Source: Thermoactinomyces sp. DSM 45891 (GTDB lineage: Bacteria > Bacillota > Bacilli > Thermoactinomycetales > Thermoactinomycetaceae). From it: 32,000 nucleotides of DNA. Under the pieces are notes generated by a model, which saw only the letters and a program-made list of their open reading frames with translations, made no database searches and was not told the DNA's origin. The DNA is taken from assembly GCF_900119485.1 (NCBI RefSeq), contig NZ_FPJZ01000006.1, positions 91,263-123,262 on the forward strand, written 5' to 3'. Positions 16,253 through 29,215 of the stretch are shown piece after piece; position 1 is the stretch's first letter; every line of letters starts with the position of its first letter. The translations under genes were made by a program, and so were the position numbers.

Positions 16253-16726
16253 TTATCGTGTAAAGCGATCGGCTACAGCGGATGCCGCATAGGATTCTGG
16301 CTTAATTTTCGCTTGATACCCAACTGCCGTTACCCATCCGACTACTTCCTGAATTACTTTACGCGTTTCACCTTGTTGTCCAATGTCCAAATGAATTTCC
16401 ATCTGTATATCAGAAAACATACGGAAAAACCCATGCTCTTTCAGTAGATCCACACAAGTTAAACTATACTCAGTTTCACGATAGATCCGATAACGTAGTT
16501 CCTTCATCTGACTATGTGTTCGTTTTGTATAGAAGAAAAGCGCCCCTTTTCCAACCCTTTGTATAATAATCGCCGTTACAAAGACAGTCTCTTTATAACG
16601 GGTCATCGAGTCGGTCCCTATCATCAACTTATACTCCGAGTTAGGATCTTCCCGCACATACTTCTGAATCTCAGACATCATTTCCTCGAAGCTACATTTA
16701 CCCCTTCGCGGATGATAAAAATGCAC
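16253..16726 (-). CDS. DUF458 / YkuK-family RNase H-like protein
   Basis: The 157-aa ORF has YKLMIGTDS, TVFVTAIIIQRVGKGALFFY and MEIHLDIG, as I remember for the YkuK family. The start is GTG at 16726, with GGAGGG 6 nt upstream. Confidence 0.75.
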   Translation of the reverse strand: MHFYHPRRGKCSFEEMMSEIQKYVREDPNSEYKLMIGTDSMTRYKETVFVTAIIIQRVGKGALFFYTKRTHSQMKELRYRIYRETEYSLTCVDLLKEHGFFRMFSDIQMEIHLDIGQQGETRKVIQEVVGWVTAVGYQAKIKPESYAASAVADRFTR

Positions 16727-21661: not shown

Positions 21662-21959
21662 CTGTATACAAAAAATAAAAATCCCACCCCTTAATTTTGG
21701 GGCGAGATTGGAATCACGCGGTACCACCCAATTTTCGTATAGAACCTTTTACCGATTCAGATACGCTCTGGTCAACCCGTTATCGCTGGTGTGCGTCCCC
21801 TCCTACTTAAACCAGTCATTCGACTCGTGTTCAGAAGGGAAGTCTCATGGACCATGTTCATCTACTATTCCTATACCGGCTTTCACCTGACCCGGCTCTC
21901 TGGAGATAGGCTTCCTAGATTACTCTCCCAATCACAGACATAGATGTAAAGATGTCAAT
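21662..21959 (-). promoter_or_regulatory. T-box riboswitch leader (methionine specifier) controlling metG
   Basis: The minus strand carries the T-box sequence AAUUGGGUGGUACCGCG (plus coordinates about 21714-21732). Stem I elements are AGAGAG and GGUGAAAG. The specifier loop is AGUAG-AUG-AAC, with AUG followed by a purine. The terminator is CUCGCCCC-AAAAUUAA-GGGGUGGG followed by UUUUUAUUUUUU. The UGGU bulge fits an A73 discriminator base. Confidence 0.85.
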
Positions 21960-22077: not shown

Positions 22078-22911
22078 CTATAGAAATGAGTCAATTTCTA
22101 CTACTCTATCTAACCACTCATTGCAGAGGCGATGGAGTAGTAACGGTTGCTCGAGTTGTAGGTTATGCCCTGCCCGGTCTAATACAGCAAAGGTGCAGCG
22201 CGGAAATTTTTCTAATAGGCGCCAAGCATCTTGATATCCTACCATCGAATCTTGTCGACCCGTTACTAGGAGGACAGGCTTTTCAAAGGAAGAGATTGTC
22301 TGATCAACATCAAAAGAAAAGGCATATTGACTTAGAAGTTTGTCTATAAAGCCGGCGTCTGCCATGGAGCGACCGGGCAGAATTTCGTTACGATATCGAT
22401 TCCAATAGTCTTCATTTTGTACAATCGCTAGGGATTGAAAGTCTTCTTTTTCTTCCCGATTCAACTGGGATAATAGATTCTCATCTTGATAGATCACTTG
22501 ACGTAGAGGAAGATCTCTCTCATTTTTATCAGGAACAATCATCGGGCAAATTAGGGCAGCCCCGCCTACTTGCTCTCTTTTCTTCGAGATAATCCCTCTT
22601 GTGAGATATCCGCCGTATGATTGCCCGACTACTAGGAAGGATTCCTCAGGTATCGTTTGATCTAGAAACTGAAGTACCTTTTCTAACATCTCATCAGAGC
22701 CGCTCATCTCATGGTACCCTTTGCTCTCCCCCATCCCAGGTAGGTCGATATAAATTCGTTTCCACTCTTCATCTCTTGCAGAAAAGATAGGCTCCATAAA
22801 ACCAGTCATCGATCGATGATCCAGTGTCAAACCATGTATGATGAGAACAGGACGGCCTGAACCGTAGATATGATAAGGAATTTTTATATTACCAATCGTA
22901 CACTCCATCAT
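22078..22911 (-). CDS. Alpha/beta-fold hydrolase
   Basis: PVLIIHGLTLDHRS (oxyanion region), the nucleophile elbow GQSYGG, and a C-terminal DRAGHNLQLEQP (catalytic His). It has its own candidate promoter (TTGTTA-16-TAGAGT) and SD downstream of the herA terminator. Confidence 0.8.
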   Translation of the reverse strand: MMECTIGNIKIPYHIYGSGRPVLIIHGLTLDHRSMTGFMEPIFSARDEEWKRIYIDLPGMGESKGYHEMSGSDEMLEKVLQFLDQTIPEESFLVVGQSYGGYLTRGIISKKREQVGGAALICPMIVPDKNERDLPLRQVIYQDENLLSQLNREEKEDFQSLAIVQNEDYWNRYRNEILPGRSMADAGFIDKLLSQYAFSFDVDQTISSFEKPVLLVTGRQDSMVGYQDAWRLLEKFPRCTFAVLDRAGHNLQLEQPLLLHRLCNEWLDRVVEIDSFL

Positions 22912-22949
22912 TCGTCACCCTTCACTCTAACTAGTGTGACCAGCATAAC

Positions 22950-22986
22950 AAAAAGCTACCAGCCTTCTCAAGTTTGGTAGCTTTTT
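22950..22986 (-). terminator. Intrinsic terminator after herA (bidirectional shape)
   Basis: aaaaa-gctacca-(13-nt loop)-tggtagc-ttttt. Confidence 0.65.
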
Positions 22987-23025
22987 GGCTTACATAATAG
23001 TCCTGATAGATGGATCACACTCCCA

Positions 23026-24864
23026 CTACACCAACTCAAATCGAGTCGCAAACGGAGACTCTACCCTCTTAACTTTCCCATCCCTCGCCCATTGCTCCAA
23101 CTCCTGGTGCAGACGATGCAAATCCCAACTCAAGCCAGTCTTCGAATTTAACTTTTCTAGCATCGGCAGAAAATCACTATCGAAAAAAGGAAACAAATCC
23201 CGAAGCGCCTCTAAAACCTGATCATCCTGATCCTGCTGAAATTGGGCCAATTCATCAAACGGATTCGATAAATGAGGACTATGCGTATACGCAGTCCGAA
23301 TCCGAATAAAAACCGTTCTCCCAAAAGCCGCCGAAGAAACAAAGGTATCTCCTGAGCGTAAATAAGGCAGACGCTTCCCCTCTTCATTCGTCAAATCTGT
23401 CTCTTCCTTTAAAGTAGCAATATCCGTTCCACGCACCGTCCGAAATACTAACTTCGTATTTAGTTGAGCGGTAATAGTCTCATCTAACAACGTTGGCCTC
23501 TGGGTAGCAAGGATCAAGAAAACACCGTACTTACGGCCTTCTTGAGCAATTTCCTTTAAAATAGACTTAGCCGGGGATTCCACTGCTTTCGGTGCAAAAT
23601 TATGTGCTTCGTCTGTTACAATAACAAATGGTGGGAAGAAATGGCCCTCCTCCCCATTCGTGCGTGCATCTTTATACTCCCTTCGCTTTCGATATAATGC
23701 GCCTGTCACATACGTAGCAAACACCTGCAAAATCCAAGTGGACCCTTGTACTACTACTAATTTCCCTTGCTCAAGCCCCCTCTGAATCGCATCGATATTT
23801 TGTTGAAAAAGCCCCGCCCTCTCCAAACGCTGAAGCCGCCAATGTACCCCCTTCACCGATGAATGAGGCATCGTACCATATTCTTGCAGAAGCTGATTTA
23901 AATCGCGAATCCGTTGCACTTGAATCGGCGTCAGATCATCACTGCGAAGCTGTTTCTCTAAGCCTGCTTTCCCTTCCTCGAGTGCCTGTACCAGATTACT
24001 TACCCGATCACTAAAACTATTATAGGTATCCCTACGCTTATGAAGCATCTGAATCGCATTCACCATCGGCTCCGAAAGCCCGCCTCCAGAAGCCCCCAGA
24101 AGTTCGACGAGATCTCGTGTATTTAATTCGCTAAACGAAACCCCTACTTCCCGACCAATCTGCACCACAACGGAGCGATCTTGCAGATCTGGACATAGAT
24201 GGGCTGTCTCCTCCCCAATATGACGAAAATCCATCTCAAAATGAGGGTCAAAGACAACCGTTGGAATCCGTAACTTCATGATCTCTTCTAACATCACCCT
24301 TAGGCCAAACGATTTCCCCGAACCAGACCCCCCGAAGACACCAATATGCGGATACTGTTGCATCGTTCGAATATCAAAGATAAACGGAACACCTTTCTGA
24401 TCCCTAATGACTCCCTGCTCCATCATCATCATCTGATTCTGTAGCTCTCGATCCATATCATGTGCCATCGGCTCCGTTCCTCGGATCTCCCCGAGTACCA
24501 TTCCTGCTCTAGGTGTTGATTTCACCAGCAAATGACGAACCTCATAAAATTGAGGCAAGCGAACCTGACAACCAGTACGAATCGGATGAGCTGCCTCTTC
24601 AAACAGCCTTACCTTGGCAATATTAATCTCATCCGCATCGATGTTATATCCAATCTGTTCAAGCGTATGTAAGACTTGTTGATCAACCATTGACTTATCA
24701 TATCCCATTGGGATTAACCGATTATATGAAAGTGTCTCAACAACTTCTCCCTTCGGATGATAGAGAGCCGCATCTTCAATCACTAGAATTTCGTTCATGC
24801 GAAACTTACGATCTTTCGATACCACATGTACTTCCTGCTGTGATGTAACTCCAACTACCTGCAT
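23026..24864 (-). CDS. herA: HerA/FtsK-clade P-loop ATPase (DUF87-like, HerA-type helicase/translocase)
   Basis: 612 aa. Walker A is GVFGGSGSGKSF (nt 24307-24342) and Walker B is FVIVTDEAHNF. ILATQRPT is typical of the FtsK-HerA superfamily. A beta-rich N-terminal region of about 110 aa is consistent with a HAS barrel. A GGAGGG SD lies 9 nt upstream. It sits 29 nt downstream of the NurA-like gene. Confidence 0.85.
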   Translation of the reverse strand: MQVVGVTSQQEVHVVSKDRKFRMNEILVIEDAALYHPKGEVVETLSYNRLIPMGYDKSMVDQQVLHTLEQIGYNIDADEINIAKVRLFEEAAHPIRTGCQVRLPQFYEVRHLLVKSTPRAGMVLGEIRGTEPMAHDMDRELQNQMMMMEQGVIRDQKGVPFIFDIRTMQQYPHIGVFGGSGSGKSFGLRVMLEEIMKLRIPTVVFDPHFEMDFRHIGEETAHLCPDLQDRSVVVQIGREVGVSFSELNTRDLVELLGASGGGLSEPMVNAIQMLHKRRDTYNSFSDRVSNLVQALEEGKAGLEKQLRSDDLTPIQVQRIRDLNQLLQEYGTMPHSSVKGVHWRLQRLERAGLFQQNIDAIQRGLEQGKLVVVQGSTWILQVFATYVTGALYRKRREYKDARTNGEEGHFFPPFVIVTDEAHNFAPKAVESPAKSILKEIAQEGRKYGVFLILATQRPTLLDETITAQLNTKLVFRTVRGTDIATLKEETDLTNEEGKRLPYLRSGDTFVSSAAFGRTVFIRIRTAYTHSPHLSNPFDELAQFQQDQDDQVLEALRDLFPFFDSDFLPMLEKLNSKTGLSWDLHRLHQELEQWARDGKVKRVESPFATRFELV

Positions 24865-24893
24865 AAAAAAATTCCCTCCATCTTATATTCAAC

Positions 24894-25847
24894 TTATATC
24901 ACTCGCTCACTTCTCTTTGGACTTAATAAACGATGACGCAAATCAGGATCAATATACTGATCTACCATTGTCTGTACCAGCGGATTCGTAACGCGAACTT
25001 CTTGATCCACAATATCAAGCCAATAAGGAATCCCCCGTCCCTGCATAGGAGTAAGCGAATAAATCAATCGGAGTAGCGAGAGTCGCTCTTGCTTCTGAAG
25101 CAATAAGCCATCCACTCCGACCGGTGCTGGACTATAAGAGGGCCGAAAAACCATTTTCCACATTTTCGTTCCCGCAGGACTCCACTCTGACCACTCATAC
25201 GCTTCGCCAACATCTAGCAAGCCGTAAAGTAAATCCCGATCCGACCATGCTGGATGCTCAGGAAATAACTGCTTTGCGAGCCCACGAGACCCTACTTCCT
25301 CAGCAATCCCTACTATTAGCACGCCGCTTTCTACTGCCAATTCCGCCACCTTGTCCCATTCATCCGCATCATCAAAATGATAATGCAGCAGTGAACCATC
25401 CATCATCACAACATGCGGCTTCCAATCTCGAATTGCCTTTTTCGTCACCTTTAGCTCTAAACGAGACAGCCTCGCACCACGTTTCTGCGCTTCACGGGCT
25501 AACAAACCCTCTGCCTCCCACTCATCCTGGATCAAAGGAGTATATACATCTGCTTCCCAGGCTTCCTCTCCTTGTGTTCCTTTTGCCAACGCTTGAAATA
25601 CAGAAAGCGTCCTCATCTCAATTCCTTTCGTTGAATTTACCGAGCCGTCTATCCCAACAACACTCTTTCCTTTTACCCAATCCTGTAATTGCTGATCACT
25701 AAATCGCTCAATCCGAACAAACTCTCCAATCTCAGAGAGATGCTCACGAATTCTTTGCGGATGTAATAGCTCACCAGGATAGGTCTCCCTTAATTTTATA
25801 TTTAATCTCTTTAGTTTTAACTGAAGTTCTTCTGATACTTTAAACAT
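24894..25847 (-). CDS. nurA: NurA-like nuclease (partner of HerA)
   Basis: 317 aa from ATG 25847 (GGAGGG 8 nt upstream). The track ORF starts 20 codons earlier with no SD. VVGIDGSVNS and VVMMDGSLL resemble the acidic-residue DGS motifs of the NurA/RNase H-like fold. Tight genetic pairing with herA supports the call. I could not run a profile search. Confidence 0.7.
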   Translation of the reverse strand: MFKVSEELQLKLKRLNIKLRETYPGELLHPQRIREHLSEIGEFVRIERFSDQQLQDWVKGKSVVGIDGSVNSTKGIEMRTLSVFQALAKGTQGEEAWEADVYTPLIQDEWEAEGLLAREAQKRGARLSRLELKVTKKAIRDWKPHVVMMDGSLLHYHFDDADEWDKVAELAVESGVLIVGIAEEVGSRGLAKQLFPEHPAWSDRDLLYGLLDVGEAYEWSEWSPAGTKMWKMVFRPSYSPAPVGVDGLLLQKQERLSLLRLIYSLTPMQGRGIPYWLDIVDQEVRVTNPLVQTMVDQYIDPDLRHRLLSPKRSERVI

Positions 25848-25956
25848 ATCAATCACCCTCCATATGAATCTAACCCTCATCTGCAAACCTTTAATAGCCA
25901 ATTTCATCTACTTTTGTCTAAATCAAGAAATTTTCTATAAAACTCCTAAAGAATTA

Positions 25957-25985
25957 TTGACTGACATGGTAATCGCTGGTATGAT
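25957..25985 (+). promoter_or_regulatory. abrB sigma-A promoter
   Basis: TTGACT (25957-25962), a 17-nt spacer, then TATGAT (25980-25985). It lies about 90 nt upstream of the abrB ATG. Confidence 0.6.
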
Positions 25986-26002
25986 GATTTTGACATCAAA
26001 TA

Positions 26003-26009
26003 TGTCGAA
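26003..26009 (+). promoter_or_regulatory. Spo0A box (TGNCGAA) just downstream of the abrB promoter
   Basis: An exact TGTCGAA lies at about +11 to +18 relative to the predicted TSS. This parallels the downstream 0A boxes that mediate Spo0A~P repression of B. subtilis abrB. Confidence 0.45.
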
Positions 26010-26077
26010 ATTTGACGTATATTTTAAAAAGAGATGATCGAAACCAATGGAACGCCAGAATTGAGGGGAGATTTCAA

Positions 26078-28917: not shown

Positions 28918-29087
28918 TCAATGATCCCTCCTGCATGCCGCCCAATTCACCTGATGGGGTTCTTCTGCATGGGGTCCGTAACTTTCACCCTATTCAAAAG
29001 ACGATGTCTCCATCCCCAACTTGCTCGGGATCTGTCTCACTTTGTTTTTGAAAGAAACAATCTTCAAAAATGAAAATAGAAAAAACA

Positions 29088-29116
29088 TCTATATCATATG
29101 GTATATACCGTAGCAA
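29088..29116 (-). promoter_or_regulatory. Candidate sigma-A promoter for ricT-yabA
   Basis: The minus strand reads TTGCTA-17 nt-TATAGA in the 300-nt tmk-ricT gap. It would give a leader of about 165 nt. Confidence 0.3.
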
Positions 29117-29215
29117 TCAGACAGCGGATACTCCCTCTACTCATTCTATCACCTGTTCGTAAACTTCGGCAAACCCTTCTTCCTAAAACAAACCTAATTC
29201 CTGTAGCTCATTTCC

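Follow-up and report, generated by a model that had tools for sequence, protein, structure and literature searches.

A NurA-HerA operon in a fixed chromosomal slot of Bacilli and Clostridia and its probable housekeeping role at DNA ends

Introduction

Structures of archaeal HerA-NurA proteins have been reported for Saccharolobus solfataricus (4D2I/2YGK), Pyrococcus furiosus (3TAI) and Thermococcus kodakarensis (9X1L-9X1P). In the solved complexes, a HerA hexamer takes double-stranded DNA (dsDNA) by its helix-bundle face and pumps it, at approximately 2 nt per ATP step, to a NurA dimer, which is docked on the N-terminal barrels of HerA, separates the duplex and passes its strands into two active sites. 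Both genes are essential in Saccharolobus and Thermococcus. Here, we report a nurA-herA gene pair in Thermoactinomyces sp. DSM 45891, a member of the Thermoactinomycetaceae (Bacillota, Bacilli). The analyzed DNA, hereafter the window, is a stretch of 32,000 nucleotides (assembly GCF_900119485.1, contig NZ_FPJZ01000006.1, positions 91,263 to 123,262 of the forward strand), and coordinates given below are positions within it unless another replicon or locus is named. The window contains the same two-gene pairing as archaea, and the pair occupies a fixed slot in chromosomes of Bacilli and Clostridia, where it probably serves a housekeeping function at DNA ends.

The in vivo role of NurA-HerA is disputed. 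For twenty years the archaeal system has carried an end-resection label, against which a 2026 study set the destruction of both strands and a possible antiviral role. In bacteria, a NurA-HerA operon is known from the Deinococcus-Thermus group (D. radiodurans, 7F6D/7WRX; T. thermophilus), with proteins of similar size to those described here (drHerA 618 aa, drNurA 349 aa), and the Deinococcus proteins form a 6:2 complex that translocates on and digests dsDNA. HerA is also the scaffold of proven defence systems, Sir2-HerA and DUF4297-HerA, which share the logic of a ring ATPase joined to an effector. Our literature search found no study of the Firmicute NurA-HerA clade, the founding comparative-genomics paper (Iyer et al. 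2004) being outside that search.

The Firmicute pair belongs to a known kind of system, and its nuclease already carries the automatic NCBI name 'DNA double-strand break repair nuclease NurA'. What is new is a slot conserved across Bacilli and Clostridia, a housekeeping level of constraint, the finding of no mobile copies, and an uncharacterised C-terminal domain in HerA. Some carriers, such as Halalkalibacterium halodurans and Shouchella clausii, are mesophiles that can be cultivated and that have genetic tools or are used in industry. Deletion and complementation are much easier in them than in hyperthermophilic archaea, and the Firmicute pair offers a good, tractable case for testing the contested function of NurA-HerA.

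Results and Discussion

Identification of NurA and HerA

The upstream gene of the pair encodes a 317-aa protein that matched Pfam NurA (PF09376) over profile positions 2-254 of 254, with an E-value of 1.6e-17 and 64.3 bits (cut-off 21). A PDB sequence search with a profile of 19 NurA homologues returned no NurA chain, and the fold was therefore established by an AlphaFold2 (AF2) model and Foldseek. The model was of high quality (predicted local distance difference test, pLDDT, 90; predicted template modeling score, pTM, 0.87), and its best PDB match was chain 9x1m_G, which is NurA in the T. kodakarensis HerA-NurA-dsDNA complex (E 1.9e-9, template modeling score 0.57). The next matches, endonuclease V (EndoV; approximately 1e-8) and Argonaute PIWI (approximately 1e-6), are known RNase H-like relatives of NurA. 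An earlier note on this DNA had read the protein as NurA from two DGS motifs, while allowing that it might lack a NurA or RNase H-like fold; profile hidden Markov model (HMM) and structure searches both returned such a fold.

Residues D67, E131, D150, D278 and D281 were invariant in an alignment of 19 diverse NurA homologues, down to 29% identity, and include the aspartates of both DGS motifs. In Pyrococcus NurA (PfNurA), the active site has been experimentally defined as Asp51, Glu105, Asp126 and His411, the last of which has an Asp counterpart in Argonaute. The D-E-D-D residues of the Firmicute protein match this site in order, spacing and secondary-structure position. Asp278 and Asp281 are candidates for the fourth catalytic residue, as they are placed like His411 of PfNurA and Asp660 of Thermus thermophilus Argonaute (TtAgo). 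With its RNase H-like fold and D-E-D-(H/D) site, the protein is identified by these comparisons as a NurA whose predicted catalytic residues are intact; it is approximately 80 residues shorter than T. kodakarensis NurA (317 versus 396 aa).

The downstream gene encodes a 612-aa protein that matched the Pfam DUF87/HerA family (PF01935; E 3.6e-16, 60.4 bits, cut-off 23.2). Both profiles, which the earlier note had proposed as a check, were thus matched above their gathering scores. Top Foldseek matches of the AF2 model (pLDDT 83) were T. kodakarensis HerA (9x1m_A, 3.6e-26) and S. solfataricus HerA (4d2i, 1e-25), and full-length alignments to the S. solfataricus, T. kodakarensis and D. radiodurans HerAs had E-values of 1e-19 to 4e-26. 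The NurA-partnered archaeal HerAs ranked ahead of both Deinococcus HerA and the DUF4297 and Sir2 antiphage HerAs (E 1e-19 to 1e-21 for the shared scaffold fold). The reading of this protein as a member of the FtsK/HerA clade was borne out by PF01935, by the fold and by invariant Walker A, Walker B and QRP motifs; within Walker B, D418, E419, A420 and H421 were all invariant. Arg456 of the ATQRP motif is the predicted arginine finger of the FtsK/HerA clade. The motifs quoted earlier for the two proteins (GVFGGSGSGKSF, VIVTDEAH, ILATQRPT, VVGIDGS, VVMMDGS and QFQQDQDDQ) are all present in the translations.

As in archaea, the Firmicute HerA combines an N-terminal barrel with a RecA core that holds a helix bundle and Walker A and B motifs, whereas sequence identity between the archaeal and Firmicute pairs is only 12-18%. 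Deinococcus HerA is likewise a very distant sequence match (E 3.3e-6, ATPase core only). The protein missed the NCBIfam equivalogs for 'DNA double-strand break repair helicase HerA' (NF040819/NF040937; 69 bits versus cut-offs of 970/800), which aligned to its C-terminal ATPase segment alone, as well as those for antiphage HerA (NF042943/NF042944; 48-54 bits versus cut-offs of 800-850). These scores place it in the HerA clade, in a subfamily separate from the archaeal repair and antiphage equivalogs of NCBI.

Organization of the operon

The two genes are co-directional, and each is preceded by a GGAGGG Shine-Dalgarno (SD) sequence; the 29-nt intercistronic gap (24865..24893) and the coordinates agree with the earlier description. 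The nurA open reading frame (ORF) extends further, to an ATG at 25907. We nevertheless assigned the start to 25847 (MLPVSEEL...), because GGAGGG lies 8 nt ahead of it and all homologues begin with M-L/F-P/K-V-S-E-E-L. Folding recovered the strong terminator that had been placed at 22950-22986 (hairpin of -21.8 kcal/mol, z = -4.0; 0 of 200 shuffles as good). A simple terminator scan had skipped this hairpin, whose apical region is larger than the 8-nt loop limit of the scan. G+C content of the pair (0.44-0.46) is near that of the remaining window. Given the short gap, the two SDs, the strong terminator and conserved adjacency, nurA-herA is a two-gene operon, and the proposal of a bacterial NurA-HerA operon at this locus stands on profile HMMs, predicted folds and conserved catalytic residues. 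Features of the operon and of its control region are listed in Table 1.

Table 1. Positions of the nurA-herA genes, their predicted functional residues and domains, and nearby signals in the window
Feature	Position	Strand	Remarks
nurA	24894..25847	-	317 aa; NurA nuclease, RNase H-like fold
NurA Asp67 (first DGS, strand beta1)	25647..25649	-	Predicted metal-binding catalytic Asp; invariant; corresponds to PfNurA Asp51 by position and spacing
NurA Glu131	25455..25457	-	Predicted catalytic Glu; invariant; helix 115-142 of model; corresponds to PfNurA Glu105
NurA Asp150 (second DGS)	25398..25400	-	Predicted metal-binding Asp; invariant; end of strand 146-151; corresponds to PfNurA Asp126
NurA WLDIVD helix (Asp278, Asp281)	25005..25016	-	Candidate fourth catalytic residue; both invariant; helix 275-284
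SD of nurA (GGAGGG)	25856..25861	-	8 nt before ATG 25847; sequence read
herA	23026..24864	-	612 aa; HerA-clade hexameric translocase ATPase (hexamer by family)
SD of herA (GGAGGG)	24874..24879	-	Inside the 29-nt gap, 9 nt before ATG 24864; sequence read
HerA N-terminal beta-barrel (HAS-barrel-like), residues 1 to ~130	24475..24864	-	Strands 2-6, 11-16, 26-30, 38-46, 81-87, 121-127 (model)
HerA Walker A GGSGSGKS (Lys184)	24310..24333	-	Invariant in Bacilli and Clostridia orthologues
HerA helix-bundle domain in RecA core, residues ~245-366	23767..24132	-	Helices 249-260, 265-274, 281-306, 313-329, 334-349, 358-365 (model)
HerA Walker B VIVTDEAH (Asp418, Glu419)	23602..23625	-	Invariant residues as given in the text
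HerA ATQRP motif (Arg456)	23494..23508	-	Invariant; predicted arginine finger
HerA C-terminal extension	23029..23265	-	SPH..NPFDEL motif, acidic linker, then folded domain
Intrinsic terminator closing the nurA-herA unit	~22949..22987	-	Hairpin AAAAAGCUACCA...UGGUAGCUUUUU, then U-run
Divergent control region common to nurA and abrB	25848..26077	.	~230 bp; promoter scan, sequence read, cross-genome alignment
abrB promoter TTGACT-17-TATGAT	25957..25985	+	Upstream TG (near-consensus extended -10); promoter scan
Tandem Spo0A-type boxes TGTCGAA and TGACGTA	26003..26009; 26013..26019	+	At ~+11 of abrB promoter

An alpha/beta-hydrolase gene (22078..22911, reverse strand; Pfam Abhydrolase_1, E 1.9e-18) lies in the herA-metG interval. 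We rejected it as a member of the operon: it is located beyond the terminator and its occurrence among loci is patchy, with the same orientation in Croceifilum oryzae, an inverted one in Baia soyae, and absence from Thermoactinomyces sp. DSM 45892 and every other locus. This gene is a recent local insertion. A T-box leader was detected upstream of metG (21695..21944, reverse strand; Rfam RF00230, 98.3 bits), together with a terminator-like hairpin at 21680..21709; as the leader is directly upstream of metG, this gene is regulated separately from nurA-herA.

A folded C-terminal domain in HerA

Both the beta-rich N-terminus and the C-terminal extension of approximately 80 aa that had been read from the sequence are seen in the AF2 model. 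A helical insertion of approximately 230 aa between Walker A and Walker B, also pointed out earlier, is present as well, but it is not unusual: it is the standard helix bundle, which all HerAs have within the RecA core. In the model, the unusual part of the protein is the folded C-terminal domain rather than the helical insertion. After a low-confidence linker, this domain was predicted with a pLDDT of approximately 80-85 and comprises helices 535-555, 562-576 and 582-594 followed by strands 598-602 and 607-611. The three helices and beta-hairpin, approximately 75 aa in total, would correspond to a winged-helix-like topology. In contrast, the C-terminus of S. solfataricus HerA is a short protrusion wrapped around the adjacent subunit, and D. 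radiodurans HerA ends in no more than a short, partly disordered tail.

The domain and the preceding SPH..NPFDEL motif are conserved in Bacilli and Clostridia orthologues, and the domain is also present in megaplasmid paralogues (see below). It had no significant Pfam match, a single weak match to ZapD (E 0.072) being below the cut-off, and no PDB match by sequence. A phmmer search against 1.84 billion representatives returned ten hits, which were mostly truncated HerA C-termini with a few repetitive proteins. Acidic (9) and basic (8) residues nearly balance in the domain, and judging from this composition it is no less likely to dock a protein than to bind DNA. This domain offers a concrete new handle for mutagenesis.

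Distribution and genomic context of the pair

A scan of GTDB with one genome per species yielded 157 NurA relatives, of which the best 80 were analyzed and probed with the neighbour proteins of the window. The nearest relatives were Thermoactinomyces sp. DSM 45892, C. oryzae and B. soyae (94-97% protein identity). Within this set of the best 80, all 36 loci of Thermoactinomycetaceae had a divergent abrB followed by nurA-herA and, where the contig was long enough, tmk-PSP1-yabA-GIY-YIG-rsmI upstream and metG-signal peptidase-tatD downstream. When loci and protein hits were combined, the pair was found in 22 of 25 named genera of this family, the other three being absent from the matches listed.

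Among alkaliphilic Bacillaceae, Alkalihalophilus, Halalkalibacter, Alkalihalobacterium, H. halodurans and S. clausii had HerA orthologues with 60-63% identity, and gene calls of the last two revealed the same slot, rsmI-abrB(divergent)-NurA-HerA-metG. In Clostridia, nurA-herA is located right after rsmI, with or without abrB, in Caloramator, Fonticella, Thermobrachium, Tissierella and Sporanaerobacter; the same rsmI slot is used in Thermohalobacter, Schnuerera, Fuchsiella, Peptoniphilus and Anaerosphaera. The three genes rsmI, nurA and herA are tightly packed in Peptoniphilaceae (gaps of -1 to 11 nt). The abrB-metG slot reported earlier for the window therefore holds across carriers as rsmI-(abrB)-nurA-herA-...-metG. 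The implied rarity of the pair in a spore-former does not, since the same slot is occupied across Thermoactinomycetaceae, among alkaliphilic Bacillaceae and in several lineages of Clostridia, non-sporulating Peptoniphilus included. It had also been allowed that the pair might be a universally conserved core pair with an assigned function; the position is indeed conserved, but the function is assigned only by homology-based naming. In B. subtilis 168, abrB presumably lies directly beside metS with nothing in between.

The genes were adjacent in nearly all of more than 80 loci. A few Tissierellia have a gene inserted between them, namely an HD-GYP-type protein in Dethiothermospora (locus L072, 9116..10216) and a GIY-YIG-like ORF in two Tissierella metagenome-assembled genomes (loci L057 and L063), indicating that tight translational coupling of the pair is not universal.

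In the window, neighbours of the pair are origin-proximal housekeeping genes: a decarboxylase gene, tmk, PSP1, yabA, GIY-YIG, rsmI, abrB, metG, a signal peptidase gene and tatD, and further out rnmV, ksgA, purR, glmU, prs, pth, mfd, spoVT and mazG. Presence in a deeply conserved housekeeping synteny block distinguishes the Firmicute clade from the Deinococcus-Thermus pair.

Descent and constraint

Protein identities to the window were compared for the pair and its neighbours. For HerA, MetG, PSP1/RicT, RsmI and NurA, respectively, mean values were 69, 67, 75, 60 and 57% in Thermoactinomycetaceae and 50, 51, 61, 45 and 32% in the Clostridia group. In an all-against-all comparison of 72 loci, HerA distances correlated with RsmI distances (Mantel r = 0.907, p = 0.001), rates relative to RsmI were 0.87x for HerA and 1.19x for NurA, and NurA and HerA distances co-varied (r = 0.94). 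No cross-class pair among these loci was closer in HerA than RsmI predicts, and HerA clustering separated Bacilli carriers from Clostridia carriers. Because HerA distances track those of RsmI without cross-class outliers, these comparisons show vertical descent: they mark the pair as an old one that has been inherited vertically, kept by strong purifying selection and lost from many lineages, and not as a mobile cassette.

Searches of mobile elements are consistent with this view. A tblastn search with NurA against 72,556 plasmids found nothing. No HerA orthologue was present in 50,697 phage records, where only remote matches to the ATPase core were seen, one of them a terminase. In IMG/VR, NurA had no relative, and HerA had just two matches, both remote and partial. 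A defence check suggested in the earlier note was carried out with PADLOC: NurA had no hit, and PADLOC HerA models matched (up to 1.2e-23) in the generic ATPase half only.

HerA relatives on plasmids were limited to paralogues with 31-40% identity on Firmicute megaplasmids (B. thuringiensis Bt407 BTB_502p, P. polymyxa pSC2, C. perfringens and others). Similarity to these proteins is full-length and includes the C-terminal domain and an SPH..(N/H)PFDE motif, whereas NurA is not adjacent; their neighbours are a 215-aa protein without domain hit, an AAA_5/HIRAN ATPase, a VWA-like protein and dnaE. We rejected them as a sign of mobility of the pair, given the low identity, the lack of NurA and the different gene context, and they form a separate plasmid-borne branch. 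In both Bt407 BTB_502p (L084, 5256..11867) and pSC2 (L085, 5159..7836), a conserved protein of approximately 215 aa precedes herA, and in the former the AAA_5/HIRAN ATPase, VWA-like protein and dnaE follow the HerA paralogue. This megaplasmid locus may be a distinct, uncharacterised HerA-based module.

Control region

The start of abrB is most likely ATG 26078 (MLKSTGIV...), the mechanical ORF call at TTG 26012 being too long. The tandem boxes downstream of the abrB promoter are presumably Spo0A sites, an assignment that we take from the known design of B. subtilis abrB and its binding by phosphorylated Spo0A (Spo0A~P). Promoter and boxes are conserved in the alignment from Thermoactinomycetaceae to alkaliphilic Bacillaceae carriers, and the conserved boxes in the shared region are accounted for by abrB itself. 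The promoter of nurA must be situated in the same region, but neither the promoter scan nor the alignment of abrB-nurA intergenic regions revealed a convincing conserved sigma-A or sporulation-sigma promoter for this gene. A block, TTTATAGAAAATTTCTT, at approximately 25905..25925 (reverse strand), between the abrB -35 element and nurA, is conserved across Thermoactinomycetaceae genera. It could be an upstream promoter or operator of abrB or part of a nurA promoter. Co-regulation of nurA with abrB is at most a possibility.

Proposed mechanism and possible roles

Since every element of the model derived from the solved complexes is intact, the same mechanism is proposed for the Firmicute pair. 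Six HerA subunits would form a ring, in a 6:2 assembly with NurA like that of the archaeal and Deinococcus complexes, and the helix-bundle face of this ring would capture a DNA end. ATP hydrolysis, involving Lys184, Asp418/Glu419 and Arg456, would pump the duplex through the central channel of HerA. A NurA dimer docked on the N-terminal barrels would then split the strands and cut one or both of them at Mn2+-dependent RNase H-like sites (Asp67, Glu131, Asp150 and Asp278/281). Assembly, substrate, polarity and physiological role of the Firmicute pair are in this way inferred from analogous systems.

As ATP-driven motors, AddAB and RecBCD load at the ends of dsDNA and break it down, and they serve both recombinational repair and destruction of foreign linear DNA. 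They are functional analogues only of NurA-HerA, a parallel that the literature also draws, with unrelated folds (SF1 helicases with PD-(D/E)XK nucleases), and we know of no Chi-like control for NurA-HerA. The fixed slot, MetG-level constraint, vertical descent and lack of mobile copies lead us to favour, as reasonably probable, a chromosomal housekeeping function in which the pair handles DNA ends, with degradation of foreign linear DNA as a possible by-product, as in RecBCD/AddAB. The likely job would be processing or clearing of broken chromosome ends, e.g., in recombinational repair or fork rescue.

Several points weigh against this function. In the only bacteria studied, nurA and herA knock-outs were not sensitized to damage and were sometimes more resistant, and the authors of the 2026 T. 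kodakarensis study, in which the complex destroyed both strands, doubt an end-resection role. A LexA/Cheo box (GAAC-N4-GTTC) was present within 260 nt upstream of nurA in 0 of 83 loci, and there is therefore no sign of SOS induction. Linkage to mre11-rad50, a hallmark of the archaeal operon, was not seen in the Firmicute loci: Mre11/Rad50 domains were found in none of the scanned or matched window ORFs of at least 110 aa, and there was no mre11-rad50/sbcCD linkage. The pair is also missing from many Firmicutes including B. subtilis, and hence is dispensable in some lineages. Finally, a conserved position alone is no proof of a housekeeping role.

Some of these observations have been, or could be, explained differently. 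The T. kodakarensis complex degrades both strands whatever the end structure, and its authors suggested an antiviral role. A dedicated anti-phage or anti-plasmid system, in which HerA recognizes invading linear DNA or loads onto it and NurA serves as the nuclease effector, would fit this activity, the absence of repair phenotypes in bacterial knock-outs, the close structural matches to HerA scaffolds of proven defence systems (8xav, 8wod and 9c1m), and the PADLOC matches to the ATPase half. However, these PADLOC matches are limited to the generic core and do not extend to NurA, the effector in Firmicutes is NurA, and the best structural matches are NurA-partnered rather than defence HerAs. The pair behaves as a core gene and not as part of a defence island: no defence genes are nearby (neighbours are tmk, PSP1, yabA, rsmI, abrB, metG and tatD), the locus is fixed across two classes by vertical descent, constraint on HerA equals that on MetG, and the plasmids, phages and viral contigs searched contained no orthologues. 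A fixed slot, constraint at the level of a tRNA synthetase and the lack of mobile copies are hard to square with a purely immune function, and among the roles suggested earlier defence has the least support; we consider it quite unlikely.

The same digestion of both strands, shown in vitro, could instead limit recombination, if the pair destroyed both strands at ends or acted via RecJ, SSB or other repair proteins and cleared unrepairable fragments. D. radiodurans and T. thermophilus mutants are equally or more resistant to ultraviolet light and mitomycin C, D. radiodurans mutants show reduced intermolecular recombination, HerA interacts with RecJ, and the lack of an SOS box in Firmicutes agrees with such a function. 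The proposal is extrapolated entirely from distant homologues (the D. radiodurans HerA sequence match is only E 3e-6), the Firmicute loci hold nothing that specifically favours a limiter, and a purely negative regulator accounts less readily for such strong purifying selection. We regard a limiter as unlikely.

A role in development or chromosome handling was also considered, i.e., an FtsK/SpoIIIE-like pump-nuclease acting in sporulation, spore DNA repair or segregation and timed through the shared abrB region (Spo0A/AbrB). Membership of HerA in the FtsK-HerA superfamily, divergence of nurA from abrB across a region with conserved Spo0A-type boxes, and retention of the abrB neighbour in Bacilli and many Clostridia carriers would be in line with such a role, and the winged-helix-like C-terminal domain formally resembles the FtsK gamma domain. 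This domain, however, is not basic, and the boxes are placed as the abrB promoter requires and need not act on nurA. Moreover, the pair is equally conserved in non-sporulating Peptoniphilus and Anaerosphaera, in which abrB is absent and nurA directly follows rsmI, while model sporulators such as B. subtilis lack it. The sporulation-linked option of the earlier note is made unlikely by the non-sporulating carriers, and we regard a developmental role as very unlikely.

A housekeeping function at DNA ends could be taken further. The Firmicute pair might be a third ancestral bacterial DNA-end machine beside RecBCD/AddAB and RecJ-RecQ, one that the last common ancestor of Bacilli and Clostridia already carried in a fixed, origin-proximal place, with the clade-specific HerA C-terminal domain as an added layer of control (sequence or partner recognition) absent from archaeal and Deinococcus complexes. 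We offer this as a speculation of low probability. If it is true, genetically tractable hosts could decide between a repair machine and an immune nuclease as the nature of NurA-HerA.

Additional observations in the window and at related loci

A 157-aa protein encoded in the ksgA-purR stretch of the window (16253..16726, reverse strand) matched Pfam RNaseH_like (PF04308) with an E-value of 1.2e-54, and it is unrelated to nurA-herA.

The interval between tmk and PSP1/ricT is only 298 nt in the window (28918..29215). In H. halodurans and S. clausii, this interval contains darA (CdAMP_rec) and holB (DNA polymerase III delta'), and spacing suggests that both genes are present there in some Thermoactinomycetaceae too; in the lineage of the window, darA and holB must be located elsewhere. 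Many Thermoactinomycetaceae also have a phosphotransferase system (PTS) EIICB transporter gene between rsmI and abrB (e.g., L004, 5536..7020; L020, 5628..7118), which the window and its closest relatives lack.

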